Origin: Bacteriophage P2
Length of the DNA stretch: 33,593 bases
Strand: one strand, 5' to 3'
Sequence record: NC_001895.1
Every line of letters starts with the position of its first letter. The first letter of the stretch is position 1. The notes beneath the pieces are model-generated. The model was not told the origin of the DNA, did not search any database, and was given only the letters and a program-made list of their open reading frames with translations. Shown here piece by piece: positions 8,923 to 33,593 of this stretch. The position numbers were made by a program, and so were the translations under genes.

Positions 8923-9367
8923 GTTTAAGCGTTTTGAAGACCGGCTGACCGGACTGATTGAATCGCTGTCACCGTCAGGGCGTCGGCGACTGAGTGCCGA
9001 ACTGGCGAAACGTCTGCGGCAGAGTCAGCAGCGTCGGGTGATGGCACAGAAAGCCCCGGACGGCACACCCTACGCGCCACGCCAGCAGCAGAGCGTCAGA
9101 AAAAAGACCGGTCGCGTTAAGCGAAAAATGTTTGCGAAACTTATTACCAGTCGTTTTTTGCATATCCGTGCCAGCCCGGAGCAGGCATCAATGGAATTTT
9201 ACGGCGGGAAGTCGCCGAAAATCGCCAGTGTGCATCAGTTTGGTCTGTCGGAAGAAAACCGGAAAGACGGTAAGAAAATTGATTATCCGGCGCGTCCCCT
9301 GCTCGGCTTTACCGGTGAGGATGTGCAGATGATTGAAGAGATTATCCTGGCTCACCTTGAGCGTTAG
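8915..9367 (+). CDS. S: Tail completion protein S
   Basis: 150-aa ORF overlapping the R stop; expected position and length. Confidence 0.85.
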   Translation: MNEFKRFEDRLTGLIESLSPSGRRRLSAELAKRLRQSQQRRVMAQKAPDGTPYAPRQQQSVRKKTGRVKRKMFAKLITSRFLHIRASPEQASMEFYGGKSPKIASVHQFGLSEENRKDGKKIDYPARPLLGFTGEDVQMIEEIILAHLER

Positions 9368-9396
9368 TTTTATCCAGGCAGAGGCTGATGCGCAAT

Positions 9397-9433
9397 TAAA
9401 CATTGAGCGGCCATGCTGGTCGCTCAATGTTTA
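9397..9433. terminator. Bidirectional hairpin between convergent S and the minus-strand island gene
   Basis: Perfect 13-bp inverted repeat TAAACATTGAGCG / CGCTCAATGTTTA (9397-9409 and 9421-9433) with 11-nt loop, between the S stop (9367) and the orf30 stop (9439). Confidence 0.6.
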
Positions 9434-9438
9434 GAGGT

Positions 9439-10224
9439 TTATGAGTGATTTTTATTTGATGCTTTGTATTCTAAAACCTTCTTATTGGCGTAAAAGAATT
9501 TTGTATATGACAGGAATATAACCAGACCTGAAGTGAAATAGACGAGGGATAGTATTAATAATGCTTTTTTGTGACTGTTATTATCTTTAATCTCCTGGCT
9601 TAACCATTCGGAGTCCTCCTCGTTTAGCTGTAAGAGCTTATTGCAGGCGATCTCAGGAAGTGTGTCTTTTATAAATACGTTTTGCAGTCTCTTGCAATCG
9701 GCAAGGCTATAAGTTTTATTAAATTCAACTGCTTTATTTTTGAAGGATAAAAGAACTTTGTCACTATAAACATAGTACATCATGTTTTTATATGGTATGC
9801 CTGTGGCATCCCTTACTATAACGGATTGTTCGTTGTGTATGTAACATGCGAGGAGAATGTAAAAAATACTGGCCAGAATTACAATTATTGTTTTAATTAT
9901 GTGTGGTGGTTTTGTTATGTCACCCCAGATACGAGTAAGGAAAAAATACGATGTTTTTAGTTTTCCATCAATCAGTCCCTGCTGTATCATTCTCACATTT
10001 TCAATGCCTGATACATTGATTCCGTTAATTATTTTAAATAGTTGAATGTCGCGCCACTCGCGGTCAAGTCTTTTTAATTTTTTGTCTGAATATCCAAAAT
10101 TGAAATAATGTGCAATAAGCCTCATAAGGTTACTTTTACCAAAGCTAAAAAATGCTAATACTGCAAAGCTACAAAGGAAAAAAACGATTAGCCCCCACAC
10201 ATTAGTCACATTATAGCTGACCAT
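9439..10224 (-). CDS. Low-GC accessory (moron) gene: 261-aa membrane protein with about three transmembrane helices, function unknown (P2 orf30 position)
   Basis: ATG at 10222-10224; AT-rich codon usage unlike flanking genes; hydrophobic segments VWGLIVFFLCSFAVLAFFSF, IIKTIIVILASIFYILLACYI, ALLILSLVYFTSGLVIFLSY; opposite strand to the late operons. Confidence 0.75.
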   Translation of the reverse strand: MVSYNVTNVWGLIVFFLCSFAVLAFFSFGKSNLMRLIAHYFNFGYSDKKLKRLDREWRDIQLFKIINGINVSGIENVRMIQQGLIDGKLKTSYFFLTRIWGDITKPPHIIKTIIVILASIFYILLACYIHNEQSVIVRDATGIPYKNMMYYVYSDKVLLSFKNKAVEFNKTYSLADCKRLQNVFIKDTLPEIACNKLLQLNEEDSEWLSQEIKDNNSHKKALLILSLVYFTSGLVIFLSYTKFFYANKKVLEYKASNKNHS

Positions 10225-10307
10225 TACGCTCTCCTTGAATGTTGTCTGGTAGTTCTACAAATGAATCCAGATAGCATAACTTTTATATATTGTGCAATCT
10301 CACATGC

Positions 10308-10943
10308 ATGAACACTCTCGCAAATATTCAGGAACTCGCGCGCGCACTGCGCAACATGATTCGCACTGGCATTATCGTCGAAACCGACCTTAACGCCGGT
10401 CGCTGCCGCGTGCAGACCGGCGGCATGTGCACCGACTGGCTTCAGTGGCTGACCCATCGCGCAGGACGTTCGCGCACATGGTGGGCACCTTCCGTGGGGG
10501 AACAGGTGCTGATTCTGGCCGTGGGTGGTGAACTCGACACGGCGTTCGTTCTGCCGGGGATTTATTCCGGCGATAACCCCTCGCCGTCTGTGTCGGCGGA
10601 TGCCCTGCATATCCGTTTCCCTGACGGGGCGGTGATTGAATATGAACCCGAAACCAGTGCACTCACGGTAAGCGGAATTAAAACGGCCAGCGTGACGGCT
10701 TCCGGTTCTGTTACTGCCACGGTGCCGGTGGTCATGGTGAAAGCATCAACCCGCGTCACCCTGGACACCCCGGAGGTGGTCTGCACCAACAGGCTGATTA
10801 CCGGCACGCTGGAAGTGCAGAAAGGCGGGACGATGCGCGGCAACATTGAACACACCGGCGGTGAACTCTCATCAAACGGTAAGGTACTGCATACCCATAA
10901 ACACCCCGGCGACAGCGGCGGCACAACCGGGAGTCCTTTATGA
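10308..10943 (+). CDS. V: Baseplate spike/assembly protein V
   Basis: ORF track starts at a TTG (10290); ATG at 10308 (MNTLANIQE...) gives 211 aa, matching gpV. Confidence 0.85.
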   Translation: MNTLANIQELARALRNMIRTGIIVETDLNAGRCRVQTGGMCTDWLQWLTHRAGRSRTWWAPSVGEQVLILAVGGELDTAFVLPGIYSGDNPSPSVSADALHIRFPDGAVIEYEPETSALTVSGIKTASVTASGSVTATVPVVMVKASTRVTLDTPEVVCTNRLITGTLEVQKGGTMRGNIEHTGGELSSNGKVLHTHKHPGDSGGTTGSPL

Positions 10944-11287
10944 CAGCGCGTTATCTCGGAATGAATCGCAGTGATGGCCTGACTGTCACTGACCTTGAGC
11001 ATATCAGCCAGAGTATCGGCGATATCCTGCGCACACCGGTCGGCTCACGGGTGATGCGTCGTGATTACGGCTCGTTGCTGGCGTCAATGATTGACCAGCC
11101 GCAGACCCCGGCGCTTGAGTTGCAGATTAAAGTCGCCTGTTACATGGCAGTGCTGAAATGGGAACCCCGCGTCACCCTGTCATCCGTCACCACGGCGCGC
11201 AGTTTTGACGGGCGAATGACGGTCACGTTAACCGGCCAGCACAACGACACCGGCCAGCCACTTTCATTAACCATCCCTGTGAGTTGA
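10940..11287 (+). CDS. W: Baseplate protein W (gp25-like)
   Basis: 115-aa ORF overlapping the V stop; expected order. Confidence 0.85.
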   Translation: MTARYLGMNRSDGLTVTDLEHISQSIGDILRTPVGSRVMRRDYGSLLASMIDQPQTPALELQIKVACYMAVLKWEPRVTLSSVTTARSFDGRMTVTLTGQHNDTGQPLSLTIPVS

Positions 11288-11291
11288 AACC

Positions 11292-12200
11292 ATGCCGATT
11301 ATCGACCTGAACCAGCTACCCGCACCGGATGTGGTCGAGGAGCTGGACTTTGAAAGCATTCTCGCTGAACGCAAGGCGACACTGATTTCCCTTTACCCGG
11401 AAGATCAGCAGGAGGCGGTCGCCCGTACCCTGACACTGGAATCTGAGCCTCTCGTCAAACTGCTGGAAGAAAATGCTTATCGTGAGCTTATCTGGCGTCA
11501 GCGTGTGAATGAGGCCGCACGGGCGGTGATGCTGGCCTGTGCCGCCGGTAATGACCTTGATGTGATTGGTGCCAATTACAACACCACGCGCCTGACTATC
11601 ACCCCGGCAGATGATTCGACCATCCCGCCGACACCGGCAGTGATGGAATCTGACACCGATTATCGTCTGCGTATTCAGCAGGCTTTTGAGGGCTTAAGCG
11701 TCGCCGGGTCAGTGGGAGCCTATCAGTATCATGGTCGCAGTGCTGACGGGCGTGTCGCGGATATTTCTGTCACCAGTCCGTCTCCGGCCTGTGTCACCAT
11801 CTCTGTGCTGTCACGTGAAAATAACGGCGTCGCATCCGAAGACCTGCTGGCTGTGGTGCGTAACGCCCTTAATGGCGAGGACGTCAGGCCGGTGGCCGAC
11901 CGCGTGACCGTGCAGTCTGCCGCCATCGTTGAATACCAGATAAACGCCACGCTTTACCTTTACCCTGGTCCCGAAAGCGAACCCATCCGCGCTGCCGCTG
12001 TGAAAAAGCTGGAAGCGTATATCACGGCACAGCACCGGCTGGGGCGCGACATCCGTCTGTCTGCCATTTATGCCGCTTTGCATGTGGAAGGTGTGCAGCG
12101 TGTCGAACTGGCTGCACCACTGGCCGACATCGTGCTCAACAGTACGCAGGCGTCTTTCTGTACCGAATACCGCGTCGTGACCGGAGGCTCGGATGAGTGA
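11292..12200 (+). CDS. J: Baseplate wedge protein J
   Basis: 302-aa ORF; expected order and length. Confidence 0.85.
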   Translation: MPIIDLNQLPAPDVVEELDFESILAERKATLISLYPEDQQEAVARTLTLESEPLVKLLEENAYRELIWRQRVNEAARAVMLACAAGNDLDVIGANYNTTRLTITPADDSTIPPTPAVMESDTDYRLRIQQAFEGLSVAGSVGAYQYHGRSADGRVADISVTSPSPACVTISVLSRENNGVASEDLLAVVRNALNGEDVRPVADRVTVQSAAIVEYQINATLYLYPGPESEPIRAAAVKKLEAYITAQHRLGRDIRLSAIYAALHVEGVQRVELAAPLADIVLNSTQASFCTEYRVVTGGSDE

Positions 12201-12723
12201 TTCGCGACTGCTGCCGACCGGCTCATCACCGCTTGAGGTCGCCGCCGCAAAAGCCTGTGCGGAAATTGAAAAAACGCCGGTCAGTATTCGTGAACTGTGG
12301 AACCCGGACACCTGTCCGGCAAATCTGCTGCCGTGGCTGGCGTGGGCGTTTTCGGTCGACAGGTGGGATGAAAAGTGGCCGGAAGCGACAAAACGCGCCG
12401 TTATCCGCGATGCCTATTTCATCCACTGTCATAAGGGCACGATAGGTGCAATCCGGCGTGTGGTGGAGCCGCTCGGCTATCTCATCAACGTGACGGAGTG
12501 GTGGGAAAACAGTGACCCGCCCGGCACCTTCCGGCTTGATATTGGTGTACTGGAAAGCGGTATCACAGAGGCAATGTATCAGGAAATGGAACGGCTGATT
12601 GCTGATGCCAAACCTGCAAGCCGTCACCTTATTGGCCTGAACATTACCCGGGACATTCCCGGCTATCTGTTCGCCGGTGGTGTGGCTTACGACGGCGATG
12701 TAATTACGGTTTACCCCGGATAA
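12193..12723 (+). CDS. I: Baseplate protein I
   Basis: 176-aa ORF overlapping the J stop; expected order and length. Confidence 0.85.
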   Translation: MSDSRLLPTGSSPLEVAAAKACAEIEKTPVSIRELWNPDTCPANLLPWLAWAFSVDRWDEKWPEATKRAVIRDAYFIHCHKGTIGAIRRVVEPLGYLINVTEWWENSDPPGTFRLDIGVLESGITEAMYQEMERLIADAKPASRHLIGLNITRDIPGYLFAGGVAYDGDVITVYPG

Positions 12724-12733
12724 GTGAGGAATA

Positions 12734-14743
12734 ATGAGCATAAAATTCAGAACCGTTATCACCACTGCCGGTGCAGCAAAGCTGGCAGCGGCAACCGCGC
12801 CGGGAAGGCGGAAGGTCGGCATTACCACGATGGCCGTCGGGGATGGCGGTGGTAAATTGCCTGTCCCGGATGCCGGACAGACCGGGCTTATCCATGAAGT
12901 CTGGCGACATGCGCTGAACAAAATCAGCCAGGACAAACGAAACAGTAATTATATTATCGCCGAGCTGGTTATTCCGCCGGAGGTGGGCGGTTTCTGGATG
13001 CGTGAGCTTGGCCTGTACGATGATGCGGGAACGTTAATTGCCGTGGCGAACATGGCCGAAAGCTATAAGCCAGCCCTTGCCGAAGGCTCAGGACGTTGGC
13101 AGACCTGTCGCATGGTCATCATCGTCAGCAGTGTGGCCTCAGTGGAGCTGACCATTGACACCACAACGGTGATGGCGACGCAGGATTACGTTGATGACAA
13201 AATTGCAGAGCACGAACAGTCACGACGTCACCCGGACGCCTCGCTGACAGCAAAAGGTTTTACTCAGTTAAGCAGTGCGACCAACAGCACGTCTGAAACA
13301 CTGGCCGCAACGCCGAAAGCGGTAAAGGCCGCGTATGACCTGGCTAACGGGAAATATACCGCACAGGACGCCACCACAGCGCGAAAAGGCCTTGTCCAGC
13401 TTAGTAGCGCCACCAACAGCACGTCTGAAACGCTCGCCGCAACACCAAAAGCCGTTAAGACGGTAATGGATGAAACGAACAAAAAAGCGCCATTAAACAG
13501 CCCTGCACTGACCGGAACGCCAACGACGCCAACTGCGCGACAGGGAACGAATAATACTCAGATCGCAAACACGGCTTTCGTTATGGCCGCGATTGCCGCC
13601 CTTGTAGACTCGTCGCCTGACGCACTGAATACGCTGAACGAGCTGGCGGCGGCGCTGGGCAATGACCCGAATTTTGCTACCACCATGACTAATGCGCTTG
13701 CGGGTAAGCAACCGAAAGATGCTACCCTGACGGCGCTGGCGGGGCTTGCTACTGCGGCAGACAGGTTTCCGTATTTTACGGGGAATGATGTTGCCAGCCT
13801 GGCGACCCTGACAAAAGTCGGGCGGGATATTCTGGCTAAATCGACCGTTGCCGCCGTTATCGAATATCTCGGTTTACAGGAAACGGTAAACCGAGCCGGG
13901 AACGCCGTGCAAAAAAATGGCGATACCTTGTCCGGTGGACTTACTTTTGAAAACGACTCAATCCTTGCCTGGATTCGAAATACTGACTGGGCGAAGATTG
14001 GATTTAAAAATGATGCCGATGGTGACACTGATTCATACATGTGGTTTGAAACGGGGGATAACGGCAATGAATATTTCAAATGGAGAAGCCGCCAGAGTAC
14101 CACAACAAAAGACCTGATGACGTTGAAATGGGATGCACTAAATATTCTTGTTAATGCCGTCATTAATGGCTGTTTTGGAGTTGGTACGACGAATGCACTA
14201 GGTGGTAGCTCTATTGTTCTTGGTGATAATGATACCGGATTTAAACAGAATGGAGACGGTATTCTTGATGTTTATGCTAACAGTCAGCGTGTATTCCGTT
14301 TTCAGAATGGAGTGGCTATTGCTTTTAAAAATATTCAGGCAGGTGATAGTAAAAAGTTCTCGCTATCCAGCTCTAATACATCCACGAAGAATATTACCTT
14401 TAATTTATGGGGTGCTTCCACCCGTCCAGTGGTTGCAGAGTTAGGCGATGAGGCCGGATGGCATTTCTATAGCCAGCGAAATACAGATAACTCGGTAATA
14501 TTTGCTGTTAACGGTCAGATGCAACCCAGCAACTGGGGAAATTTTGATTCCCGCTATGTGAAAGATGTTCGCCTGGGTACGCGAGTTGTTCAATTGATGG
14601 CGCGAGGTGGTCGTTATGAAAAAGCCGGACACACGATTACCGGATTAAGAATCATTGGTGAAGTAGATGGCGATGATGAAGCCATCTTCAGGCCGATACA
14701 AAAATACATCAATGGCACATGGTATAACGTTGCGCAGGTGTAA
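12734..14743 (+). CDS. H: Tail fibre protein
   Basis: 669-aa ORF; internal tandem QLSSATNSTSETLAATPKAVK motif typical of tail fibres; C-terminal third is AT-richer than the N-terminal part. Confidence 0.9.
   Translation: MSIKFRTVITTAGAAKLAAATAPGRRKVGITTMAVGDGGGKLPVPDAGQTGLIHEVWRHALNKISQDKRNSNYIIAELVIPPEVGGFWMRELGLYDDAGTLIAVANMAESYKPALAEGSGRWQTCRMVIIVSSVASVELTIDTTTVMATQDYVDDKIAEHEQSRRHPDASLTAKGFTQLSSATNSTSETLAATPKAVKAAYDLANGKYTAQDATTARKGLVQLSSATNSTSETLAATPKAVKTVMDETNKKAPLNSPALTGTPTTPTARQGTNNTQIANTAFVMAAIAALVDSSPDALNTLNELAAALGNDPNFATTMTNALAGKQPKDATLTALAGLATAADRFPYFTGNDVASLATLTKVGRDILAKSTVAAVIEYLGLQETVNRAGNAVQKNGDTLSGGLTFENDSILAWIRNTDWAKIGFKNDADGDTDSYMWFETGDNGNEYFKWRSRQSTTTKDLMTLKWDALNILVNAVINGCFGVGTTNALGGSSIVLGDNDTGFKQNGDGILDVYANSQRVFRFQNGVAIAFKNIQAGDSKKFSLSSSNTSTKNITFNLWGASTRPVVAELGDEAGWHFYSQRNTDNSVIFAVNGQMQPSNWGNFDSRYVKDVRLGTRVVQLMARGGRYEKAGHTITGLRIIGEVDGDDEAIFRPIQKYINGTWYNVAQV
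13265..13460 (+). repeat. Imperfect direct repeat (about 64 nt, twice, period 132 nt) inside tail fibre gene H
   Basis: 13265-13328 and 13397-13460 are near-identical at nucleotide level; they encode the duplicated peptide QLSSATNSTSETLAATPKAVK; the minus-strand shadow ORF 13264-13482 shows the same duplication. Confidence 0.8.
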
Positions 14744-14746
14744 GTT

Positions 14747-15274
14747 ATGCAGCATTTAAAGAACATTAAGTCAGGTAATCCAAAAACAAAAGAGCAATAT
14801 CAGCTAACAAAGAATTTTGATGTTATCTGGTTATGGTCCGAAGACGGAAAAAACTGGTATGAGGAAGTGAAGAACTTTCAGCCAGACACAATAAAGATTG
14901 TTTACGATGAAAATAATATTATTGTCGCTATCACCAGAGATGCTTCAACGCTTAATCCTGAAGGTTTTAGCGTTGTTGAGGTTCCTGATATTACCTCCAA
15001 CCGACGTGCTGACGACTCAGGTAAATGGATGTTTAAGGATGGTGCTGTGGTTAAACGGATTTATACGGCAGATGAACAGCAACAACAGGCAGAATCACAA
15101 AAGGCCGCGTTACTTTCCGAAGCGGAAAACGTTATTCAGCCACTGGAACGCGCTGTCAGGCTGAATATGGCGACGGATGAGGAACGTGCACGACTGGAGT
15201 CATGGGAACGTTACAGCGTTCTGGTCAGCCGTGTGGATCCTGCAAATCCTGAATGGCCGGAAATGCCGCAATAA
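14747..15274 (+). CDS. G: Tail fibre assembly chaperone
   Basis: 175-aa ORF immediately downstream of H; AT-richer composition shared with the 3' part of H. Confidence 0.85.
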
Positions 15275-15674
15275 GTTGTATGACCTCTGTTGTGAACTTA
15301 CATATCTATGGCACAGAGTAAAGCCTAATCTGAAGTCCACTCTGTGCCAAAAGCGGACCTTATAAACAAGAACAATGGTCATATCAGTGTGTTTTGATTG
15401 CATAGCTAACGTGCGTCTTCCTGTACAGAATCATAAGATGATAGGGCATAGGAGATGATTATTATCGCGTGTTTTAAAAATAGCTTTCTGCATCAAGTGT
15501 CACTTGCGAAGAGGTATTGGCGCTATGATTGGCATCACTCAGTTCAGATAATATTTTAAATATTTGGTAAATGTTCAGATTACACAATTCGGTCTGCGTC
15601 CCGTTAAAATTATCTACTATTAGTTATTACTATGAGGTGAATGGCAAGTGTTTTCCACTCGCCATTTTTGTTTT

Positions 15675-17261
15675 TTATTTTTTTAAAGCCTTTCCGACGT
15701 TTAAGGATTTTGCCAAGCCATAAAATATTTGATATTTCATTCCTGTTTTTATTTTTGGTGAGATATTTGCGTAACTTCTTTCTCTAAAACACCAACGTAT
15801 AAACCTATTATTATCTTCGGTTGTTTCTATATAGCATATTACATTGAGACCAAAAAGAAACTGAAGGAAGTCATTTGCAGTTGTCATGAATTTTGGTTTT
15901 GTTGTGGAAATGGAACTAATATGAGTTTCAAGTTGTTTATATGCTAAGAGGTATTCAGCGTAATCAAAAGTATCTTTTCCAGAGAGGAATTCAAAGAACT
16001 TTAAAAAAATCTCATAATGTTCACTTCCATAATAAAATGATAAATGATCTTTTATTTCTCCAAGTAAATAGTTAGAGTAATCTCTTTGCATGCTAGGACT
16101 TTCAAAGTCATCTAGACTAAATTGATTTTTCCCATCATCACCGCTGGCGTGTGATTTGATAATTTCGAGCATCCGTAATATATCTCTTGGGCGATAATAT
16201 GACCAGCGAAGGAAATTAATAAATGATGTGGGGTGGTTATAATTATCATGGACGTTGGGTGAATCCCAAGGGAAATAATGGTCCCATGCCTGTCCCTTTT
16301 TAAGGGCCATGTCTTGCTGAGTCCTAAGCAGATGATCTAATACCTCAAATAATTGAGAGCTACGGTGGTTAACATATTCTGTCCGCCAGTCCAAGAATAC
16401 TGAATTATCTCTGATTTTTGCGTTTTGATTTTGTAATCCTATGGATTCAAATATATCTGGCCTGATCAAGAGAACGGCCTTCATTCTCCCTTTTCCTCCC
16501 TTTATACTTGGGAAGAAATCGTTGTTAATCTCCCAGACTGCGTGAGCTAATCCTTTTATACATTCTAGATAATCATCGTATGGAATTGAGGAAGGGCGGA
16601 TATCAATACCATCGATAAATAAAATATGATTTTGAGATAAACGTATTTGGCTAAAGGCCTCTTCAAATTTTTTTTGTATATAAAATAAATTTATCTGAAA
16701 TCTGCTCTCAGAAAAAGATAAAGACTCTCTTTCTTCACCTTTTAAGGTTGCATGCTTATGAAGTAGTTCGGCTGCAACTTTTGACTCTTGAACAAAACTG
16801 AGGGCTTGAATTATTTCTGGTGAAAATGCCTTAAGATAATACTCATCTATTGCATCATTAAGTGATGAGAATTTTGAATAATTTAGTAACTTTGAAATTT
16901 TCCCTTCTTTATCTAATACTTGTTTTGATATTAATAAATATAGAATAACTTTCCATATGCCAGAGAAGTCAGACAAATTTAAATGCTTTTCAGATTTAAG
17001 AGTGATAAATTTTTGATATTCTGTCTCTCTTATATATTTAGTTGTAGCTAGCGTATTGTTAATATTGTTATTTGAGAGATAGATAGAGTATGCGGTTTTA
17101 CCAGTACCTTTCTCTCCTACAAGAAACGATATATTTGGTTCACATAATCTAGATAGGTGATTATCACGTATGAACACTTTGTTAAGTAATTCTTTATTCT
17201 CCCTTCTCTTATAATTTTCAGCATCAGCATAGCCAAGAGTTAGATCTTTGATTGGTATCAT
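15675..17261 (-). CDS. fun: Low-GC accessory gene: 528-aa P-loop NTPase (Walker A GEKGTGKT; candidate Walker B ILFIDGIDIR), candidate phage-exclusion protein at the Z/fun position
   Basis: ATG at 17259-17261 with GAGGT RBS; strongly AT-rich; minus strand between plus-strand G and FI; flanked by about 400-bp AT-rich non-coding regions; gene symbol assigned from position in the P2 map, not from sequence comparison. Confidence 0.75.
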   Translation of the reverse strand: MIPIKDLTLGYADAENYKRRENKELLNKVFIRDNHLSRLCEPNISFLVGEKGTGKTAYSIYLSNNNINNTLATTKYIRETEYQKFITLKSEKHLNLSDFSGIWKVILYLLISKQVLDKEGKISKLLNYSKFSSLNDAIDEYYLKAFSPEIIQALSFVQESKVAAELLHKHATLKGEERESLSFSESRFQINLFYIQKKFEEAFSQIRLSQNHILFIDGIDIRPSSIPYDDYLECIKGLAHAVWEINNDFFPSIKGGKGRMKAVLLIRPDIFESIGLQNQNAKIRDNSVFLDWRTEYVNHRSSQLFEVLDHLLRTQQDMALKKGQAWDHYFPWDSPNVHDNYNHPTSFINFLRWSYYRPRDILRMLEIIKSHASGDDGKNQFSLDDFESPSMQRDYSNYLLGEIKDHLSFYYGSEHYEIFLKFFEFLSGKDTFDYAEYLLAYKQLETHISSISTTKPKFMTTANDFLQFLFGLNVICYIETTEDNNRFIRWCFRERSYANISPKIKTGMKYQIFYGLAKSLNVGKALKK

Positions 17262-17651
17262 TATTACCTCAACTAAAGCAATTGAAAAACATATGGTTAT
17301 AAAAACATAGCGCTGCTCTGTCGCATATTGTGGATATCAACATATGAAATGTAAAGGAACTATTTGTGGATGAATGAACCGAATCGCTGTAGCTTCGGTA
17401 GTCATCTTTCAGACTTGTATAAATGAACAACTTCCGCTTCTCGCTCAAAGGAAACTGTCAGATTTGATAGCTTTTGGGCTATGTAAACTGTCAGTCGGAA
17501 AATGAGTGAGTACAAATCAGGGCAGGTGAGCGAATTGCCCGCCTTTTCTTTACCGGTGGTTGTGCTGTCGATTAGCCAACCGGGACAAATAGCCTGACAT
17601 CTCCGGCGCAACTGAAAATACCACTCACCCATTAACCACGGAGTTAAACGG
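17262..17651. promoter_or_regulatory. Divergent intergenic region: promoter of the minus-strand NTPase gene and late promoter for the FI operon
   Basis: 390-bp non-coding gap between divergent genes; P2-type late promoter for the tail sheath operon is expected upstream of FI; exact elements not resolved by eye. Confidence 0.4.
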
Positions 17652-18842
17652 ATGAGTGACTATCATCACGGCGTGCAGGTGCTGGAGATTAACGAGGGCA
17701 CCCGCGTCATTTCCACCGTATCCACGGCCATTGTCGGCATGGTCTGCACGGCCAGCGATGCAGATGCGGAAACCTTCCCCCTCAATAAACCTGTGCTGAT
17801 TACCAATGTGCAGAGCGCAATTTCAAAGGCCGGTAAAAAAGGCACGCTGGCGGCATCGTTGCAGGCCATCGCTGACCAGTCAAAACCGGTCACCGTTGTC
17901 ATGCGCGTGGAAGACGGCACCGGTGATGACGAGGAAACGAAACTCGCGCAGACCGTTTCCAATATCATCGGCACCACCGATGAAAACGGTCAGTACACCG
18001 GACTAAAAGCCATGCTGGCGGCGGAGTCGGTAACCGGTGTTAAACCGCGTATTCTCGGCGTGCCGGGACTGGATACCAAAGAGGTGGCTGTTGCACTGGC
18101 ATCAGTCTGTCAGAAGCTGCGTGCTTTCGGGTATATCAGCGCATGGGGCTGTAAAACCATTTCCGAGGTGAAAGCCTATCGTCAGAATTTCAGCCAGCGT
18201 GAGCTGATGGTCATCTGGCCGGATTTCCTCGCATGGGATACGGTCACCAGTACCACCGCCACCGCGTATGCCACCGCCCGTGCGCTGGGGCTGCGCGCTA
18301 AAATCGACCAGGAGCAGGGCTGGCATAAAACGCTGTCCAATGTCGGGGTGAACGGTGTTACCGGCATCAGCGCATCTGTATTCTGGGATTTGCAGGAGTC
18401 CGGCACCGATGCTGACCTGCTTAACGAGTCAGGCGTCACTACGCTGATTCGCCGCGACGGTTTCCGCTTCTGGGGTAACCGTACCTGCTCTGATGACCCG
18501 CTGTTCCTCTTTGAAAACTACACCCGCACCGCGCAGGTCGTGGCCGACACGATGGCTGAGGCGCACATGTGGGCGGTGGACAAGCCCATCACTGCAACGC
18601 TGATTCGCGACATCGTTGACGGCATCAATGCCAAATTCCGTGAGCTGAAAACAAACGGCTATATCGTGGATGCGACCTGCTGGTTCAGCGAAGAATCCAA
18701 CGATGCGGAAACCCTCAAGGCCGGAAAACTGTATATCGACTACGACTATACACCGGTGCCTCCTCTCGAAAACCTGACCCTGCGCCAGCGTATTACCGAT
18801 AAATACCTGGCAAATCTGGTCACCTCGGTTAACAGCAATTAA
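17652..18842 (+). CDS. FI: Contractile tail sheath protein
   Basis: 396-aa ORF; expected position and length. Confidence 0.9.
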   Translation: MSDYHHGVQVLEINEGTRVISTVSTAIVGMVCTASDADAETFPLNKPVLITNVQSAISKAGKKGTLAASLQAIADQSKPVTVVMRVEDGTGDDEETKLAQTVSNIIGTTDENGQYTGLKAMLAAESVTGVKPRILGVPGLDTKEVAVALASVCQKLRAFGYISAWGCKTISEVKAYRQNFSQRELMVIWPDFLAWDTVTSTTATAYATARALGLRAKIDQEQGWHKTLSNVGVNGVTGISASVFWDLQESGTDADLLNESGVTTLIRRDGFRFWGNRTCSDDPLFLFENYTRTAQVVADTMAEAHMWAVDKPITATLIRDIVDGINAKFRELKTNGYIVDATCWFSEESNDAETLKAGKLYIDYDYTPVPPLENLTLRQRITDKYLANLVTSVNSN

Positions 18843-23954: not shown

Positions 23955-24035
23955 TGTTTTTGTTTTATCTGTTTGTTTTGTAAGGATAAATTAACTAAAA
24001 TGGCACCATCAACAAAACCGGAAGAGGTGCTCGCG

Positions 24036-24254
24036 ATGTTTCATTGTCCTTTATGCCAGCATGCCGCACATGCGCGTACAAGTCGCTATATCACTGACAC
24101 GACAAAAGAGCGTTATCATCAGTGCCAGAACGTGAATTGCAGCGCCACGTTCATCACTTATGAGTCGGTACAGCGATACATCGTGAAGCCGGGAGAAGTC
24201 CACGCCGTAAGGCCGCACCCGTTGCCATCAGGGCAGCAAATTATGTGGATGTAA
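24036..24254 (+). CDS. ogr: Late-gene transcription activator, Cys4 zinc finger
   Basis: ATG 24036 gives 72 aa (MFHCPLCQHAAH...CQNVNC...); C-x2-C ... C-x4-C motif; position between D and attP. Confidence 0.85.
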   Translation: MFHCPLCQHAAHARTSRYITDTTKERYHQCQNVNCSATFITYESVQRYIVKPGEVHAVRPHPLPSGQQIMWM

Positions 24255-24264
24255 TTACAAACAG

Positions 24265-24291
24265 AAAGCCCCTCAGTCGAGGGGCTTTTTT
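24265..24291 (+). terminator. Rho-independent terminator after ogr
   Basis: Stem AGCCCCTC (24267-24274) / GAGGGGCT (24279-24286), 4-nt loop AGTC, followed by T-run 24286-24291. Confidence 0.75.
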
Positions 24292-24293
24292 GT

Positions 24294-24490
24294 CGATGTG
24301 GTCAATGTGTGGACGTGACCAGAAATAAATCCTTTTATTTCAATTTATTGTACGTAAAAAATAAGCCCGTGTAAGGGAGATTTAGGGTGTCACCAGTAGG
24401 GGCTTTCAACGGTACAATGCGGGTTTGAGCGGCATAAATTACCACTGAAAGCCCTTAAACGTTACTCTACTGTGGACACTGTGTGGACAC
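24294..24490. other. attP: Phage attachment site attP: core around 24356-24382 flanked by arm-type integrase binding repeats
   Basis: Core AAAAAATAAGCCCGTGTAAGGGAGATT at 24356-24382; direct repeats TGTGGACA at 24471 and 24483 and related TGTGGACG/TGTGGTCA at 24308/24297; right-arm repeats overlap the 3' end of int. Confidence 0.7.
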
Positions 24491-25475
24491 TCTCGGCCTC
24501 AGTACCACCTCTTAGCGGATTAAGAGAAATGGCGTCCTGAAGGTACTCTGGCGCAAAATGAGCGTAAACCATAGTTTGCTCAATCCGCGTGTGACCTAGT
24601 ATCCGTTGTAGCGTGATAATACTTCCTCCATTAATCATGAAATGAGTGGCAAAGCTGTGCCTTAGTGCATGTGTGGCTTGCCCCATTGGCAAATCCGGTT
24701 TTATTGCTTTCATTGTTCGTCTGAAGCGAGGGTAATCAGCATCAGGGAATAAAAAACCTCGTTTGTTATCCGCGATCATTTTGGCAACAGCCTCTGAGAT
24801 CGGGACGGTGCGTGGTTTGTTTGTTTTCGTTTTAACAAACGTGACGCGGTTATGGATGATATTTTCTGCTTTCAAACGAGCTGCTTCTCCCCAACGTGCT
24901 CCTGTACTCAGGCAAAGAATCGCAATCTTTTTATTGTCGCCGTCAAGTGCTGCAAGCAGTAAGGCAATTTCTTCCTGTGTTAGATAGCCTGTTTCTGGTT
25001 TTTCCTCCTTAAGCCTTTTTGTCCCTCTGATAGGGTGCTCACCAAAGAATAACTCCGCTTCAATCAGGGCTGTAAACATGCCGCTAATACATGTTAAATC
25101 ACGATTGATACTCGAAGGTTTAATACCCTGACTTCTTCGGGTGGCGCAGTACTGGCTGATAAGCGATTTCGTAATTTGAAATGCGCATGGGTCATTCGTT
25201 ATTTTTGTGAAGATTTCAATTTTTCCAAGATTAGATTTCCCATGCTCTTCGTGTTTACCCTTTAAATCCCACCAGATCTGTGTCAGCTCCGACAGACGTC
25301 GCTTGTCTGTTGGTTTTGATAGCCATTCTTTATTGTGGTGGTTGTACAACGTGTATTTCTCGAAAGCGACAGCTTCGCTTTTCTTATCAAACTTCCTACG
25401 GATGCGTTTTCCATTACGTCCAGTAGGGCGGATGTCCACTTCATATCGACCATCATCGAGTTTTTTGATTGCCAT
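24462..25475 (-). CDS. int: Tyrosine integrase
   Basis: 337-aa ORF, ATG at 25473-25475 with GGAGGG RBS; C-terminal catalytic signature ...HALRHSFATHF...LGHTRIEQTMVYAHF. Confidence 0.9.
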   Translation of the reverse strand: MAIKKLDDGRYEVDIRPTGRNGKRIRRKFDKKSEAVAFEKYTLYNHHNKEWLSKPTDKRRLSELTQIWWDLKGKHEEHGKSNLGKIEIFTKITNDPCAFQITKSLISQYCATRRSQGIKPSSINRDLTCISGMFTALIEAELFFGEHPIRGTKRLKEEKPETGYLTQEEIALLLAALDGDNKKIAILCLSTGARWGEAARLKAENIIHNRVTFVKTKTNKPRTVPISEAVAKMIADNKRGFLFPDADYPRFRRTMKAIKPDLPMGQATHALRHSFATHFMINGGSIITLQRILGHTRIEQTMVYAHFAPEYLQDAISLNPLRGGTEAESVHTVSTVE

Positions 25476-25590
25476 CAGAAAACCCTCCGAGTGGTGTGTT
25501 TTTTTGCGACTACTAATCGCTTTTTTCGTGGTGGCTGAAATTTAGCCACCAATAGTAGGCACTTGTGATGAATATATTCACGATGAATTG

Positions 25591-25890
25591 TTAACCAGTC
25601 TTTTGACCGGAGTGGGGCGACGTTGTTTCGTTTTGCCCAAAGTGTGCGAGAGCGGGCGCAATTTGCCCGGACTCAGGAGCGATCTGATTGGTCATGAACC
25701 ATAAAGTGTATTTGGTGAATTGTGGGGTCTGCAGGATGTTCATCATGACATCTGTTGGAGGTGTTGAACGACCACTTTCATAGTAACTCAGCGTGCCATA
25801 CGGAACCCCTGTTAAATCAGCAAGTTGTTGTCTGCTCAAATACTCTGATTTTCGCATTAAGACTATCTTCTCGCTTATCGTGTTTGACAT
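25591..25890 (-). CDS. C: Immunity repressor C (helix-turn-helix)
   Basis: 99-aa ORF with HTH-like segment LSRQQLADLTGVPYGTLSYYESG; divergent from cox. Confidence 0.85.
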   Translation of the reverse strand: MSNTISEKIVLMRKSEYLSRQQLADLTGVPYGTLSYYESGRSTPPTDVMMNILQTPQFTKYTLWFMTNQIAPESGQIAPALAHFGQNETTSPHSGQKTG

Positions 25891-26004
25891 GGTGTTTAGA
25901 TCTCAATAGTATTTAGTTTAGATGTAGATTGTTTAGTGCTTGGATGTGGGCACTAAAAGGCATTATAAGACATTAAACGCAATTCATGAGGGCTAGAGGA
26001 CGAC
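25891..26004. promoter_or_regulatory. Divergent early/repressor promoter region with directly repeated operator half-sites
   Basis: Direct repeats GTTTAGAT at 25894 and 25916 (22 bp apart) plus a third related copy TGTTTAGTG near 25930, between divergent C and cox. Confidence 0.65.
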
Positions 26005-26280
26005 ATGAGCAAGCAAGTAACACTCATGACTGATGCGATTCCTTATCAGGAGTTCGCAAAACTAATAGGAAAATCGACAGGAGCGGTTCGTCGGATGATC
26101 GATAAAGGAAAGCTGCCTGTAATTGATATGACCGATCCACAATCAGCTTCAGGTCGTGCAGGTGAATATTGGGTATACCTTCCGGCATGGAATAACGGAC
26201 TAAAACTGGCTTATGAAAGCCGCCCTAAAGAGATTCGTGACGGCTGGTTGATGTGGTTAGGTCTCGGTGAACCACGTTAA
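26005..26280 (+). CDS. cox: Cox: excisionase / directionality factor and repressor of the C promoter
   Basis: 91-aa first gene of the rightward early operon, opposite C. Confidence 0.85.
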   Translation: MSKQVTLMTDAIPYQEFAKLIGKSTGAVRRMIDKGKLPVIDMTDPQSASGRAGEYWVYLPAWNNGLKLAYESRPKEIRDGWLMWLGLGEPR

Positions 26281-26290
26281 GGAGAACCGT

Positions 26291-26461
26291 ATGAATGAGC
26301 CTCGTTGTATTGCTCAGTTACTGCGTAACGAAAGCCCCAGGGCGATTGACTTCACCATCACCCACGGTAAGGGGCGTAAGGGAATCATTATCCGCACCAA
26401 AAAACAGAGTCCGTTAAAAAAGGCTCTGACCTTTCTGAAAAGCCGGAGGGTATGGAAATGA
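26291..26461 (+). CDS. Small early protein of unknown function (P2 orf78 position)
   Basis: ORF track starts at a GTG (26267); ATG 26291 with AAGGAGAA RBS gives 56 aa. Confidence 0.6.
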   Translation: MNEPRCIAQLLRNESPRAIDFTITHGKGRKGIIIRTKKQSPLKKALTFLKSRRVWK

Positions 26462-26958
26462 CAGTGATGACGCTCAATCTCGTTGAAAAACAGCCAGCAG
26501 CTATGCGCCGGATAATTGGTAAGCATCTTGCCGTTCCTCGCTGGCAGGATACATGTGATTATTATAATCAGATGATGGAGCGCGAACGGTTAACGGTTTG
26601 CTTCCATGCTCAGTTAAAACAGCGTCACGCAACGATGTGTTTTGAAGAAATGAACGACGTCGAACGTGAACGACTGGTATGTGCAATTGATGAATTGCGT
26701 GGTGCATTCTCAAAACGCCGTCAGGTTGGCGCAAGTGAGTATGCATATATTAGTTTTTTAACAGTCAGTCAGCGTCGTACTTTATTTATGCATGCCGGAT
26801 TGACTGAAAAAGAATTCAACCAGCCATACTGGCGAATTAATGAAGAGTCATGTTACTGGCGTGATGCTTTATTCCGTGCATTACGTGAATTATTCAGTCT
26901 GTTTGAGTATGCACCGACAATTCTGACGTCGGTAAAACCGGAGCAATATCTGCATTAA
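26458..26958 (+). CDS. B: Replication protein B (helicase-loader-like, needed for lagging strand synthesis)
   Basis: ATG 26458 has better RBS spacing (GGAGGG 26445-26450) than 26452 and gives 166 aa; position before the replication initiator. Confidence 0.8.
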   Translation: MTVMTLNLVEKQPAAMRRIIGKHLAVPRWQDTCDYYNQMMERERLTVCFHAQLKQRHATMCFEEMNDVERERLVCAIDELRGAFSKRRQVGASEYAYISFLTVSQRRTLFMHAGLTEKEFNQPYWRINEESCYWRDALFRALRELFSLFEYAPTILTSVKPEQYLH

Positions 26959-27021
26959 GTAATTAACCAGAGTTTTTAACGCACTTAATTGTGCGGGGCT
27001 TCTTTTTGCCTGGAGAAAGTT

Positions 27022-27246
27022 ATGCATACAGTTTCTGAAAATCAGTGCGGTATATACGCATTACTGCTGCAACAGGCCAGAACCGAAGCACAGGCCGACG
27101 CTGCGACGCGCTTTTCTTCTCATCTTGATGCCATGATTCGCCACATCACAAAGGCGGAGTTATCCCGCGTGGAGATAGTCGAGCTGCTCAGTCAGGAGTC
27201 GGAAAAATTTCACAATATCGGATTGTCTCGCGGGGAGGTGCTTTGA
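27022..27246 (+). CDS. Small early protein of unknown function (orf80 position)
   Basis: ATG 27022 with GGAGAAA RBS at 27012-27018; ORF-track upstream extension has no RBS. Confidence 0.6.
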
Positions 27247-27548
27247 TGTTCTGTTCTCGTGCAGTTGTATTACTGAATAACGCCTTAAAAATCGCCGTTA
27301 TGAAAAATGGCGATTTGTCTCTTATTCAACTTGGTCTTGATAAAGAAAAACGCGAAATAACTGAATCTGTTATCGCGATTTATCAGAGTGAATTAAACCT
27401 CCTGTCTGATGTGGTCAATTTACTTGTTAAACGCGCTGTATTTCACAAGCAAATTTCCTCCGTGGATGAACTGACGAAATTAACGACAGAAATCGCCAGC
27501 TATTGCGCTGATGAATTTAAAAAACTGAACGACAAAAGGAACTGGTAA
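27246..27548 (+). CDS. Small early protein of unknown function (orf81 position)
   Basis: ORF track begins at a TTG (27243); ATG 27246 overlaps the preceding stop (TGATG); 100 aa. Confidence 0.6.
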   Translation: MFCSRAVVLLNNALKIAVMKNGDLSLIQLGLDKEKREITESVIAIYQSELNLLSDVVNLLVKRAVFHKQISSVDELTKLTTEIASYCADEFKKLNDKRNW

Positions 27549-30319: not shown

Positions 30320-30645
30320 TGGCAAAAATTCACGAGGTAAAGCTGCACGCAAAATATTTCGACCTTGTACTGGAAGGAAAGAAACGCGCAGAGTTTCGGA
30401 AAAAAGATCGTAATTATGAGCGCGGGGACACGTTGATTTTGCATGAATGGGTGCAGGGTGTGTTTACGGGGCGAAAGGTTGAAGCCCGGATAACAGATGT
30501 TACTGACCTGTCAGACTGGCTGGAAGATTATGTCTTGCTGCACAGAATACTAGGTGAGATACTGCCGCTGACTGTCAAGCTGGCAGTATCCTCCACATTT
30601 TTTATAAATCTAAGGCGAAGAACGGTGGCAATATATTTGCTTTAA
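30316..30645 (+). CDS. ASCH/DUF3850-like small protein (orf91 position)
   Basis: ATGATG at 30316-30321 overlapping the A stop; pattern KIHEVKLHAKYFDLVLEGKKRAEFRKKDRNYERGDTLILHEW resembles ASCH/DUF3850 (PUA-like) domain proteins. Confidence 0.65.
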   Translation: MMAKIHEVKLHAKYFDLVLEGKKRAEFRKKDRNYERGDTLILHEWVQGVFTGRKVEARITDVTDLSDWLEDYVLLHRILGEILPLTVKLAVSSTFFINLRRRTVAIYLL

Positions 30646-30683
30646 ATTGTAAATAAGCAAATTATTCTAAGCCACAAATGATA

Positions 30684-31445
30684 TCAATTGAGTATCGATT
30701 TTCGTTCGAATATAACCATAACGCCAAGCGTCAAATGTAAGTCATCTATATGTGATTCGTATTCATATTGGTCAGCATCAGGAGATAGTAAATGCTCTGC
30801 TGCTGTAAAAACATCAATTGTAACAGATATATCGTCTGGAATTTCTTCATTTAATTCGGATATGTATTTTTTATATTTGTTTTTTAATTTCCTTATCATG
30901 TCTTCCTTATGGTGGATTGTAGTGCAGTAATTTTTTTTAGTTGAATCATTGTATGAATGGAATGAACAGTTTAATGCTAGGCCAAGACTTGAATTTCCTG
31001 TAGGGCCTGTGTGTTTAAAGTATTCAAGATTTCTTCTTATGTCAGAAAATAAAAGACTTTTACAGGGGGCATTTCCTTTAACTTCTATTGCACATATTGG
31101 AATGTCGAAAAATGGTCTGCTGTCCAATATGGCAATATCAATTCTGCCTGATCTTGTTGTGTTTGTGTTTTTTCTGACAGTTTTTTTTGAGAATATTTTT
31201 TGGGGGTCAGACCGTTTCGATAAAGGAACTGTTGCATTAATGAATTTATTTGTATGGTACTCAAATATAACTTTGTAATCACCATGGCGAAAAGATTTTA
31301 TTTCTAACAACGATAGACCTATAGATACGGTAGCTACATATTCAGTGTTTATTTTTGCACCAGACCTGAAATCCATTAAATAAGTTGCGTCGGCTGACTT
31401 TTTCATTCCATCTTTTACAGCTTTCACAATATCCATGTTATTCAT
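30684..31445 (-). CDS. tin: Low-GC accessory gene: 253-aa protein at the tin position (T-even phage inhibition), with a possible PD-(D/E)xK-like motif
   Basis: ATG at 31443-31445 with AGGTG RBS; AT-rich; minus strand downstream of old; motif IDIAILD...x13...EVK in residues about 101-123; gene symbol assigned from position in the P2 map. Confidence 0.75.
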   Translation of the reverse strand: MNNMDIVKAVKDGMKKSADATYLMDFRSGAKINTEYVATVSIGLSLLEIKSFRHGDYKVIFEYHTNKFINATVPLSKRSDPQKIFSKKTVRKNTNTTRSGRIDIAILDSRPFFDIPICAIEVKGNAPCKSLLFSDIRRNLEYFKHTGPTGNSSLGLALNCSFHSYNDSTKKNYCTTIHHKEDMIRKLKNKYKKYISELNEEIPDDISVTIDVFTAAEHLLSPDADQYEYESHIDDLHLTLGVMVIFERKSILN

Positions 31446-31619
31446 ATCAACACCTTTTATATTCCAGAATTATAAATCTTAATGATTGATTTGTTTGTGT
31501 GTTTAGGTTACTAGATTGACGTACTTATAGCACATTCTGATTTTGAAATCACCATCCTTGGGTAAAGCACAGCCTATCACTATTGGTTTAGTACTGTGCT
31601 GTAATAGTATCAGATTAAG

Positions 31620-33380: not shown

Positions 33381-33574
33381 TATTTTTCCTTAAATGTGCT
33401 ATTTGTATGCAATGAGTTCATACGAAACGCTTTTTTACATTTTATAGTCGTTGCATTCAAGGGTGCATGAGATTGCATTAAGGGAAACTGTGATATGGCT
33501 TGGCTTTTGACTGGAAATACTGATGGCTCATTAGTTTTATTAAGGTGCATTAAAACCGCCCCGTGAAGCGGGCG

Positions 33575-33593
33575 GGCGAGGCGGGGAAAGCAC
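33575..33593 (+). repeat. cos: Right cohesive-end (cos) sequence, identical to 1-19
   Basis: Exact 19-nt identity with the window start; preceded by GC-rich palindrome CCGCCC...GGGCGG at about 33557-33577. Confidence 0.8.

Follow-up and report, generated by a model that had tools for sequence, protein, structure and literature searches.

The AT-rich tract in the tail-fibre operon of phage P2 is very probably (we would put it at roughly 90%) the variable, host-range half of that operon, that is, an Sv+U cassette consisting of the distal 295 codons of gene H together with gene G. Its limits would be a 26-bp crossover site at 13857-13882 on the left and the G stop codon at 15274 on the right. 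We propose that the cassette moves across family lines among enterobacterial phages and would thereby keep the GC of a shared pool (about 0.42-0.47, with a GC3 of about 0.40), without approaching the ~0.57 typical of P2 late genes, while the H sequence 5' of the site would stay with each backbone and have adopted its composition. Exchange presumably proceeds by recombination in conserved flanks and at internal joints, the candidates being the 76-nt repeats, the crossover-site motif, 14158-14170, 14537 and the G domain boundary; the outcome would be a set of nested, swappable sub-modules, not a single block. By analogy to the Mu S-U structure and published work, the collar domain at the H N-terminus would anchor the trimer to the baseplate and distal H would bind the cell-surface receptor, while the N-terminal domain of G would bind the H tip and its helical C-terminal domain would drive trimerisation and folding.

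The window, i.e. the whole stretch of 33,593 nucleotides that was analysed (NC_001895.1), is phage P2, and both genes are exact matches to database entries (FIBH_BPP2 for H, also identical to NP_046775.1, and TFA_BPP2 for G). Gene H (12734..14743) is an open reading frame for a tail fibre protein of 669 aa with matches to Pfam PF12571, PF03406 and a fragment of PF21446; gene G (14747..15274), which starts 4 nt past the H stop codon, codes for a tail fibre assembly chaperone (Tfa) of 175 aa. The features described here lie on the plus strand, with the exception of the cargo hotspot, to which no strand is assigned, and of the reading frames within it that are marked as minus-strand.

The composition break within H

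In sliding windows, GC amounts to 0.55-0.60 over 10.35-13.95 kb and drops to 0.36-0.48 over 13.95-15.15 kb. A single-change-point likelihood scan of the range 10290-15274, with 200 codon-block shuffles as null, placed the maximum-likelihood GC change point at 13911 (2-unit support interval 13809-13950), with a GC of 0.571 to the left and 0.432 to the right. The log-likelihood ratio is 38.8, whereas the shuffles (n = 200) averaged 2.9 and did not exceed 11.1. A preliminary description of this DNA had H become AT-richer from about 13.9 kb and had named sliding-window GC and codon usage as the check; its start at 13900 falls inside the support interval and the shift is significant. It had also assigned the low GC to the 3' third of H: an AT-rich 3' end is indeed present, but it takes up the last ~42% of the gene.

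GC at codon positions 1 and 2 is likewise lower in distal H, which implies that amino-acid content contributes to the shift, and the higher GC of the G C-terminal domain also lies mainly at these two positions. Both observations would suit an explanation without any transfer, in which low GC merely follows from the amino-acid make-up or the structural constraints of beta-rich tips and their chaperone. We regard this as highly improbable, because GC3 falls as well, from 0.594 in H codons 1-374 to 0.395 in H codons 375-669 (Fisher p = 1.7e-8 with the first 100 G codons pooled into the latter group); the composition shift is more than amino-acid content alone. At synonymous sites it also holds through G, as the preliminary description had claimed: whole-gene GC is 0.438, and in the last ~230 nt GC3 is still 0.447 (as compared to 0.60-0.69 in V, W, J, I, FI and FII) despite an overall GC of up to 0.51-0.53. 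A second GC change point within the cassette is not significant (13911-15365, p = 0.23) and is borderline in G alone (log-likelihood ratio of 7.3 versus a null maximum of 7.2), and a return of the 3' third of G to backbone composition is accordingly not claimed.

Mosaic layout of the fibre and its chaperone

H has the layout of a gpH-type mosaic fibre, and its different stretches match 74 different PHROG families. The protein starts with a collar or baseplate-anchor domain at residues 1-151 (PF12571, 193 bits); behind it come the fibre repeats, with PF03406 (Phage_fiber_2) matching in two stretches (129 bits), then a shaft and finally a variable distal part. Two direct repeats of 76 nt at 13252-13327 and 13384-13459 (region 13252..13459), spaced 132 nt, encode Phage_fiber_2 repeats; Tandem Repeats Finder reported nothing in H-G, and the fibre repeats are seen only as a two-copy dispersed family. 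The backbone-level similarity (~97%) of 10 Peduovirus relatives stops at 13327/13339 or at 13458-13461, i.e. at the ends of the repeat copies, and several Peduovirus relatives carry extra copies, a pattern that points to the repeats as a hotspot of recombination and copy-number change among Peduoviruses.

Next comes a constant shaft segment (13484..13856), which has homologues in lambdoid side tail fibres and in Sc, the constant part of P1 gene S. It yields tblastn matches to lambdoid stf and P1 Sc and is 69% identical at the DNA level to the Sc of P1 and D6, ending at their cixR sites. Its GC3 of 0.581, as compared to 0.403 in the homologous P1 segment, fits the composition of the P2 backbone.

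Beyond the crossover site, the proximal variable region (Sv, 13883..14170, GC 0.441) shares 87-90% DNA identity with D108, P1, D6, P88 and vB_YpM_3, and H residues 375-477 are 86% identical to residues 166-268 of D108 S. Similarity mapping then delimits a hypervariable core of the distal fibre (14171..14536, GC 0.423), which is common in full only to Wphi, R18C, HQ103, Shae_phiSM and vB_YpM_3. In D108, P1, D6, P88, P2_AC1, pro147 and OU784549, similarity is lost at 14158-14170 and sustained again from 14525-14699, with a few of these phages retaining short patches of 81% or regaining similarity from 14351. The encoded residues 478-585 have only 32% amino-acid identity to D108 S, and fragments of the core match fibres of the T-even gp37 type. 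Judging from this variability, the core is likely the specificity-determining segment, and it appears to be swapped independently of G. The extreme C-terminus of H (14537..14743) is conserved again, with 87-91% DNA identity to P1, D108, D6 and P88 and 73% amino-acid identity to the C-terminus of D108 S, and presumably serves as the docking region for the chaperone.

The assignment of G as a Tfa chaperone relies on a PF02413 (Caudo_TAP) match over residues 40-175 (130.7 bits versus a curated cut-off of 22.1), on phrog_136 "tail fiber assembly protein" (E = 1e-81) and on an alignment with Mu U (PDB 5YVQ chain B) over the whole length of G (E = 2e-107); the amino-acid identity to D108 U amounts to 95%. 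Homology and the domain roles ascribed to Tfa proteins (fibre binding by the N-terminal and helical trimerisation by the C-terminal domain; North et al. 2019, as relayed in passages of PMC7882524 and PMC9608196) suggest a fibre-binding domain at about 14747-15046 and a helical trimerisation domain at about 15047-15274. PHROGs likewise divide G, into residues 1-93 and 101-175. Since similarity to vB_YpM_3 breaks off within the gene, at 15075, this position seems to be an independent recombination breakpoint.

The divergence of the last 80 H residues tracks that of the G N-terminal domain (Mantel r = 0.85, p = 5e-4, 27 gene pairs), which suggests that these ~80 residues travel with that domain. 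The preliminary description had the receptor-binding tip and its chaperone acquired together, and this stands for the H tip and the G N-terminal domain; it does not extend to the core at 14171-14536 and the G C-terminal domain, which appear to recombine independently. P2 deleted for both genes (delta-HG) is complemented in trans by H+G or by a chimera together with U' (PMC9942202).

Carriers of the cassette, its crossover site and its flank

By sequence comparison, the low-GC tract at 13853-15274 is the counterpart of the host-range cassette, Sv+U, found within the invertible segments of Mu/D108, P1, D6 and Xuanwuviruses. DNA identity is 87-91%, or 84% across the entire Shae_phiSM H-G match. 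Similarity to vB_YpM_3 (a Muvirus), D108, P1 and D6 begins at 13850-13877 and in most of them ends 0-7 nt from the G stop codon (15267-15274 for Mu-like, P1-like and Xuanwu phages, with vB_YpM_3 as the exception noted above), and the matches in these four phages sit inside annotated invertible segments beside hin, gin or cin. Mu-like phages, P1-like phages and D6 are carriers outside the kin of P2; P88 and Shae_phiSM, both Xuanwuviruses, come from its own family, the Peduoviridae. The backbones of the carriers show no detectable DNA similarity to P2 or only ~71%. Such sharing of the same DNA between otherwise dissimilar phages again speaks against amino-acid make-up as the sole source of the low GC, and it supports the exchangeable module of receptor-binding tip and chaperone that the preliminary description had suggested.

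The cassette has a GC of 0.42-0.47 in every carrier, with backbones ranging from 0.43 to 0.57 (Mu-like 0.53-0.54, P1 0.47, D6 0.43, Xuanwu 0.57, P2 0.57). The contrast is illustrated by P1 and P2, in which the Sc homologues are 69% identical with diverged GC3, whereas the cassette segments are 87-90% identical with a GC of 0.42-0.46. In 18 phages the GC break coincides with the allele boundary. Among 5426 complete E. coli genomes, 1616 furthermore contain pieces of the cassette, located on chromosomes as well as plasmids.

A single recent acquisition by P2 itself from a low-GC donor could account for the sharpness of the composition step and for the position of the tract next to a cargo hotspot with other AT-rich insertions. 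However, H-G of Wphi, R18C and HQ103 is 96.6-97.2% identical to that of P2, equal to the backbone identity (96-97%), and the allele must therefore be older than their split from P2. In addition, all 15 Peduoviruses examined have a low-GC H 3' end (0.43-0.47) and a low-GC G (0.44-0.46), different alleles included, which makes the position an old, repeatedly refilled slot. A recent gain is thus improbable; the low GC is a property of the cassette itself and extends across the genus. The gene trees attest to the exchange: J+I give the clades {L413C, P22H1, P24B2}, {12474II, P22H4} and {Wphi, pro147} at 100% bootstrap, and these are contradicted by a G clade {P22H1, P22H4, fiAA91}, also at 100%. 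The G gene of pro147 falls, with 98% support, into one group with U of P1, D108 and D6 and G of P88 and Shae_phiSM. The phylogenetic incongruence foreseen in the preliminary description is thereby found, and it likewise disagrees with an explanation without transfer.

At the left edge of the cassette, alignment with the annotated D108 gix repeats and the annotated P1 cixR and cixL revealed a putative orphan crossover site of the Din family (gix/cix-type), 26 bp in length (TTATCGAATATC-TC-GGTTTACAGGAA, 13857..13882), which spans H codons 375-383 (VIEYLGLQE) and lies within the GC change-point interval. It is the sole site of its kind in the window at <=3 mismatches on both strands (0 in 100 shuffles). 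Core and inner half equal Mu gix at 12/12 positions, while the outer half agrees at 10/12 positions with P1 cixR versus 8/12 with Mu; the protein is split in the same way, being P1 Sc-like upstream and Mu Sv-like downstream of the site, which would make it a P1/Mu hybrid junction. Recent Peduovirus breakpoints fall at the repeats (13327-13461) and at 14158-14170 and not at the site, which suggests that it is an older junction. In a search of the open-access literature, nothing relevant turned up on a gix/cix-like site in P2 H, although one may already have been reported.

The H-side site of P88 and Shae_phiSM agrees with that of P2 at 25/26 positions, and both phages have a partner site and an invertase, which presumably acts on this site 1 nt different from the P2 one. 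P2 itself might thus be a decayed invertible segment (an ancestral H-G-G'-H'v-invertase arrangement that lost its second half) or the result of a half-segment capture. It fits this idea that these two members of the Peduoviridae have the full system and that H+G of Shae_phiSM matches P2 from H nt 220 on at 84-89% identity. Traces of a lost half were nevertheless absent where they were sought: a second, inverted crossover site was not found in the window (both strands, <=3 mismatches), Gin, Cin and the P88 invertase, used as tblastn queries on the whole window, gave no match better than E = 2.0, tblastx of 15275-17651 for U', S' or invertase remnants 3' of G gave nothing below E = 0.5, and U' and S' proteins, as probes for an alternate Sv'-U' set, matched only G and the H end across the whole window. 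Moreover, an invertase is annotated next to G in 0/15 Peduovirus loci, and Peduovirus-specific sequence follows directly after the G stop codon. We consider such an origin possible but doubtful; the idea bears only on how the P2 arrangement arose and does not conflict with the Sv+U cassette reading. As P2 lacks the partner site, Sv'-U' and an invertase, the cassette is fixed in one orientation, with no switching by inversion. That Din invertases supplied in trans (e14 Pin, Gin from a Mu sharing the cell or Cin from a P1 plasmid) could use the site is unlikely; if they did, a P2 prophage could swap Sv-G with elements in the same cell by site-specific instead of homologous recombination, and the hybrid half-sites would be the scar of such an exchange.

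On the right, the limits of similarity in relatives define a Peduovirus-specific segment (15275..15364) between cassette and cargo hotspot: similarity is kept to 15346-15364 in 14/15 Peduovirus relatives, and that to P37 stops at the G stop codon, 15274. The segment contains an 11-bp perfect inverted repeat (15309-15319 / 15339-15349) and thus a hairpin 3' of G, located by eye and by folding (-26.1 kcal/mol, z = -2.3); a consensus terminator scan of 15200-17700 returned none. The adjoining variable hotspot (15365..17425), which the preliminary description had placed next to the cassette, is real and lies outside it. The relatives carry different genes there, and similarity resumes at 17426-17465 in most Peduovirus relatives and at 17534 in P37, which is without a cargo insert. 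In P2 the hotspot, which we take to be the Z/fun locus, holds a minus-strand ORF of 528 aa (15675-17261, GC about 0.32) that matches phrog_13260, a family of unassigned function in PHROGs. PADLOC gave nothing credible for two AT-rich minus-strand ORFs.

Relation to known systems

The mosaic nature of P2 H-G has been known since 1992 and is a textbook case of phage mosaicism. Haggård-Ljungquist, Halling and Calendar (J Bacteriol 174:1462, 1992; listed among the references of PMC13100340) reportedly noted that the C-terminal part of P2 H resembles the tail fibres of Mu and P1 and that G resembles Mu U and U', a resemblance they are said to have read as horizontal transfer among unrelated phages. 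Their locus is the one treated here, and the present analysis does not differ from theirs in substance. Added to that account are the quantification of the composition break and its coincidence with a putative orphan hybrid crossover site, the constant GC of the cassette across carriers, and nested breakpoints mapped with present-day genomes; these details are useful but unsurprising and open no new biological question. The locus represents a classic case of host-range change in phages by swaps of fibre tip and chaperone across families.

The closest counterparts are the invertible segments of the Din family, namely the G segment of Mu/D108 (gin), the C segment of P1/D6 (cin) and the segments of P88 and Shae_phiSM. 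They share homologous Sv+U with P2 and have a crossover site at the corresponding codon, where the constant part passes into the variable one. While these segments switch by inversion, P2 has one such site and is without a second one, Sv'-U' or an invertase. In the Mu S-U complex (PDB 5YVQ), Mu S (chain A) can be aligned to H over residues 375-477 and 586-669, and the two-domain logic of Tfa is common to P2 G. The intervening residues 478-585 diverge from S of Mu/D108 to the extent given above for the core, so that the receptor-contacting surface probably differs.

The same joint is now used to retarget P2/P4 delivery particles. For the design of chimeric fibres, the natural boundary would run from 13857-13882 to 15274 and enclose separately swappable sub-modules of one composition in all carriers, with the G N-terminal domain co-varying with the last ~80 H residues. 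In the best P2-P1(S') fusion, P2 H residue 370 was joined to P1 S residue 446, and the chimeras work; the constructs included the cognate chaperone gene U', as possibly needed for folding (PMC9942202). The engineered junction thus lies 4-5 codons before the crossover site, and these man-made chimeras demonstrate exchangeability, not the natural route by which the cassette moves.

Composition of the distal H gene and G

The window holds a P2-type (Peduovirus) genome, the first ~24 kb of which are 95–97 % identical to many Peduovirus records. The products of H (12734–14743; 669 aa) and G (14747–15274; 175 aa) exactly match FIBH_BPP2 (NP_046775.1) and TFA_BPP2, respectively; gene I (12193–12723) lies upstream, FI (17652–18842) downstream. 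V, W, J, I, and the 5' part of H have GC contents of 0.55–0.60, while values from ~13.95 to 15.15 kb range from 0.36 to 0.48. A likelihood change-point scan of 10290–15274 placed the break at 13911 (support 13809–13950; GC 0.571 to the left vs. 0.432 to the right), with an LLR of 38.8, whereas none of 200 codon-block shuffles exceeded 11.1. GC3 in H falls from 0.594 (codons 1–374) to 0.395 (codons 375–669; Fisher p = 1.7e-8 with the first 100 G codons joined to the latter), and the shift is thus also present at synonymous sites. Sliding-window GC, change point, and GC3 accordingly confirm the preliminary description, which had noted AT-richer DNA from ~13.9 kb through G. The last ~230 nt of G show a GC content of 0.51–0.53 and a GC3 of 0.447, the latter far under that of neighbouring late genes (0.60–0.69). 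The composition step in G near 14924–15139 matches the boundary between its two domains; a second change point within the low-GC tract was non-significant (p = 0.23).

A second AT-rich island (9300–10300; GC 0.33–0.39) is located between the tail-completion genes and V and carries minus-strand ORFs at 9439–10224 and 10224–10610, the 261-aa one matching only phrog_2407 (unknown function). It is present in P2_AC1, OU784549, 12474II, VB-YPM-4, and YpM_115, missing from Wphi, pro147, L-413C, and HQ103, and occupied by a different plus-strand gene in R18C; it is a second cargo slot. Low GC (~0.32–0.37) also marks 30000–33593, where tin and old of P2 are located, and the early region (24000–27500) has ~0.43–0.47.

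Downstream of G, a perfect 11-bp inverted repeat (15309–15319/15339–15349; 19-nt loop, −26.1 kcal/mol, z = −2.3) marks the extreme end of the Peduovirus-conserved post-G segment, bordering the cargo hotspot, and is unlike an intrinsic terminator because no T-run follows. A GC-rich hairpin at 15640–15695 (GGCAAGTG...CACTCGCC), followed by a long plus-strand T-run, looks like a terminator for late-operon read-through; it escaped the consensus terminator scan owing to a single mismatch in the stem. It lies just beyond the 3' end of a minus-strand 528-aa cargo ORF (15675–17261; GC ~0.32), which matches phrog_13260 (unknown function) over its full length, lacks a match in Pfam, scored no better than chance in PADLOC, and is replaced by a different gene in each Peduovirus relative.

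A nested module refilled from a shared pool

Neighbour-joining trees (200 bootstraps) of J+I and of G support conflicting clades. The J+I tree groups {L413C,P22H1,P24B2}, {12474II,P22H4}, and {Wphi,pro147}, each at 100 %, the G tree {P22H1,P22H4,fiAA91} at 100 %. With genes from outside Peduovirus added, pro147 G groups with U of P1, D108, and D6 and G of P88 and Shae_phiSM (98 %), and the P22H1/P22H4/fiAA91 group joins the clade of the alternate chaperone U' (96 %). The phylogenies are therefore incongruent, as had been anticipated for an exchangeable module. In Wphi, R18C, and HQ103, the entire H–G is 96.6–97.2 % identical to P2, equal to backbone identity.

The cassette (13853–15274; distal H plus G) has a GC content of 0.42–0.47 in every carrier genome, at backbone values of 0.43 (D6), 0.47 (P1), 0.53–0.54 (the Mu-like vB_YpM_3 and D108), and 0.57 (P2 and the Xuanwuviruses P88 and Shae_phiSM). 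The constant shaft (13484–13856) differs in GC3 (0.581 in P2 vs. 0.403 in the P1 homologue, 69 % identity), each version being adapted to its own genome, while cassette segments of P2, P1, and D108 have GC 0.42–0.46 at 87–90 % identity. All 15 Peduovirus relatives show GC 0.43–0.47 at the H 3' end and 0.44–0.46 in G, different alleles included. Across 18 phages, the change point tracks the allele boundary: it falls near H nt 1180–1235 where a gix-type site is at ~nt 1124, at nt 1046 in OU784549 (site starting at nt 992), and at ~nt 512 in L-413C, whose allele departs from that of P2 at nt 606. Given this constant GC and the tracking of alleles, the step represents the border of a slot whose contents are replenished from a common pool and not a P2-specific event. 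Of 5426 complete E. coli genomes, 1616 contain pieces of the cassette (2101 chromosomal and 166 plasmid places), 205 of these with at least 80 % of it covered. Horizontal transfer at H–G is already known as a phenomenon; Haggård-Ljungquist et al. reportedly ascribed the likeness of P2 H and G to Mu and P1 fibre genes to it in 1992.

The proposal that fibre tip and chaperone form one exchangeable module is supported, with sharper boundaries and a nested structure. Close Peduoviruses match P2 at backbone level up to one of two places: the ends of a pair of 76-nt fibre repeats (13327/13339 or 13458–13461) or 14158–14170. The core (14171–14536) is fully shared only with Wphi, R18C, HQ103, Shae_phiSM, and vB_YpM_3, its flanks and G far more widely. 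The last 80 H residues co-vary in divergence with the G N-domain (Mantel r = 0.85, p = 5e-4) and less strongly with the C-domain (r = 0.62), and PHROGs split G at residues 93/101. This pattern fits the published two-domain Tfa model, which assigns fibre-tip binding to a variable N-domain and the driving of trimerisation to a conserved C-domain (PMC7882524, PMC9608196). In the Muvirus vB_YpM_3 (L003, 4895–5428), a P2-like H tip accompanies a chimeric chaperone, its N-domain of P2 type and its C-domain of U' type, which shows recombination inside the chaperone gene. In published trans-complementation of a delta-HG P2, the most successful P2–P1(S') chimera had its junction between residue 370 of P2 H and residue 446 of P1 S, with the cognate U' on the same plasmid for a possible folding need (PMC9942202). 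This joint is 4–5 codons upstream of a crossover site in both H and S.

The crossover site and comparison with invertible segments

The left boundary of the cassette is this crossover site, TTATCGAATATC-TC-GGTTTACAGGAA (13857–13882; codons 375–383, VIEYLGLQE), which can be aligned with the gix repeats annotated in D108 (TTATCCAAAACG-TC-GGTTTACAGGAA) and with P1 cixR (TTATCCAATACC-TT-GGTTTAAGAGAA). The core and inner half are those of Mu gix (12/12, as against 9/12 for P1), and the outer half has more positions in common with P1 cixR (10/12) than with Mu (8/12), making the site a P1/Mu hybrid. The protein mirrors this split, as H resembles the constant part of P1 S upstream of the site (PYFTG..VGRDILAK..AVI.YLGL) and the variable part of Mu S (Sv) downstream (QETVNRAGNAVQK). 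The site occurs once in the window, and no invertase, U', or alternate Sv' was found anywhere in it; P2 thus holds half an invertible segment in fixed orientation. Lacking three defining features of such segments, the locus should not be classed as one. The composition step coincides with this orphan, hybrid, near-intact site; a description of the coincidence was not found in the accessible literature, though an earlier report is quite possible.

Mu-like vB_YpM_3 and P1-like D6 match only from 13850–13877 on (megablast). In these phages, P1, and D108, the matching DNA (87–91 % identity, local blastn) comprises Sv and the chaperone gene U inside annotated invertible segments adjoining hin, cin, or gin. 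D108, P1, D6, and P88 remain similar precisely up to the G stop codon (15274), Shae_phiSM up to 15267, and vB_YpM_3 up to 15075, within G. G shares 95 % amino-acid identity with D108 U and aligns with Mu U (PDB 5YVQ) over its full length (E = 2e-107); D108 S is 86 % identical to H residues 375–477 (its residues 166–268), 32 % to 478–585, and 73 % to 586–669. P88 and Shae_phiSM, which belong to the Peduoviridae like P2, match P2 H from nt 220 on (84–89 % identity), and their H-side site differs from that of P2 by 1 nt. Both also possess a partner site, an invertase, and a G'/H'v set, of which only G' is annotated in Shae_phiSM. Their invertible fibre segment is complete, with the fibre genes on one side and the tape-measure gene on the other. 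For the locked P2 arrangement, these Xuanwuviruses provide the nearest "switchable" counterparts.
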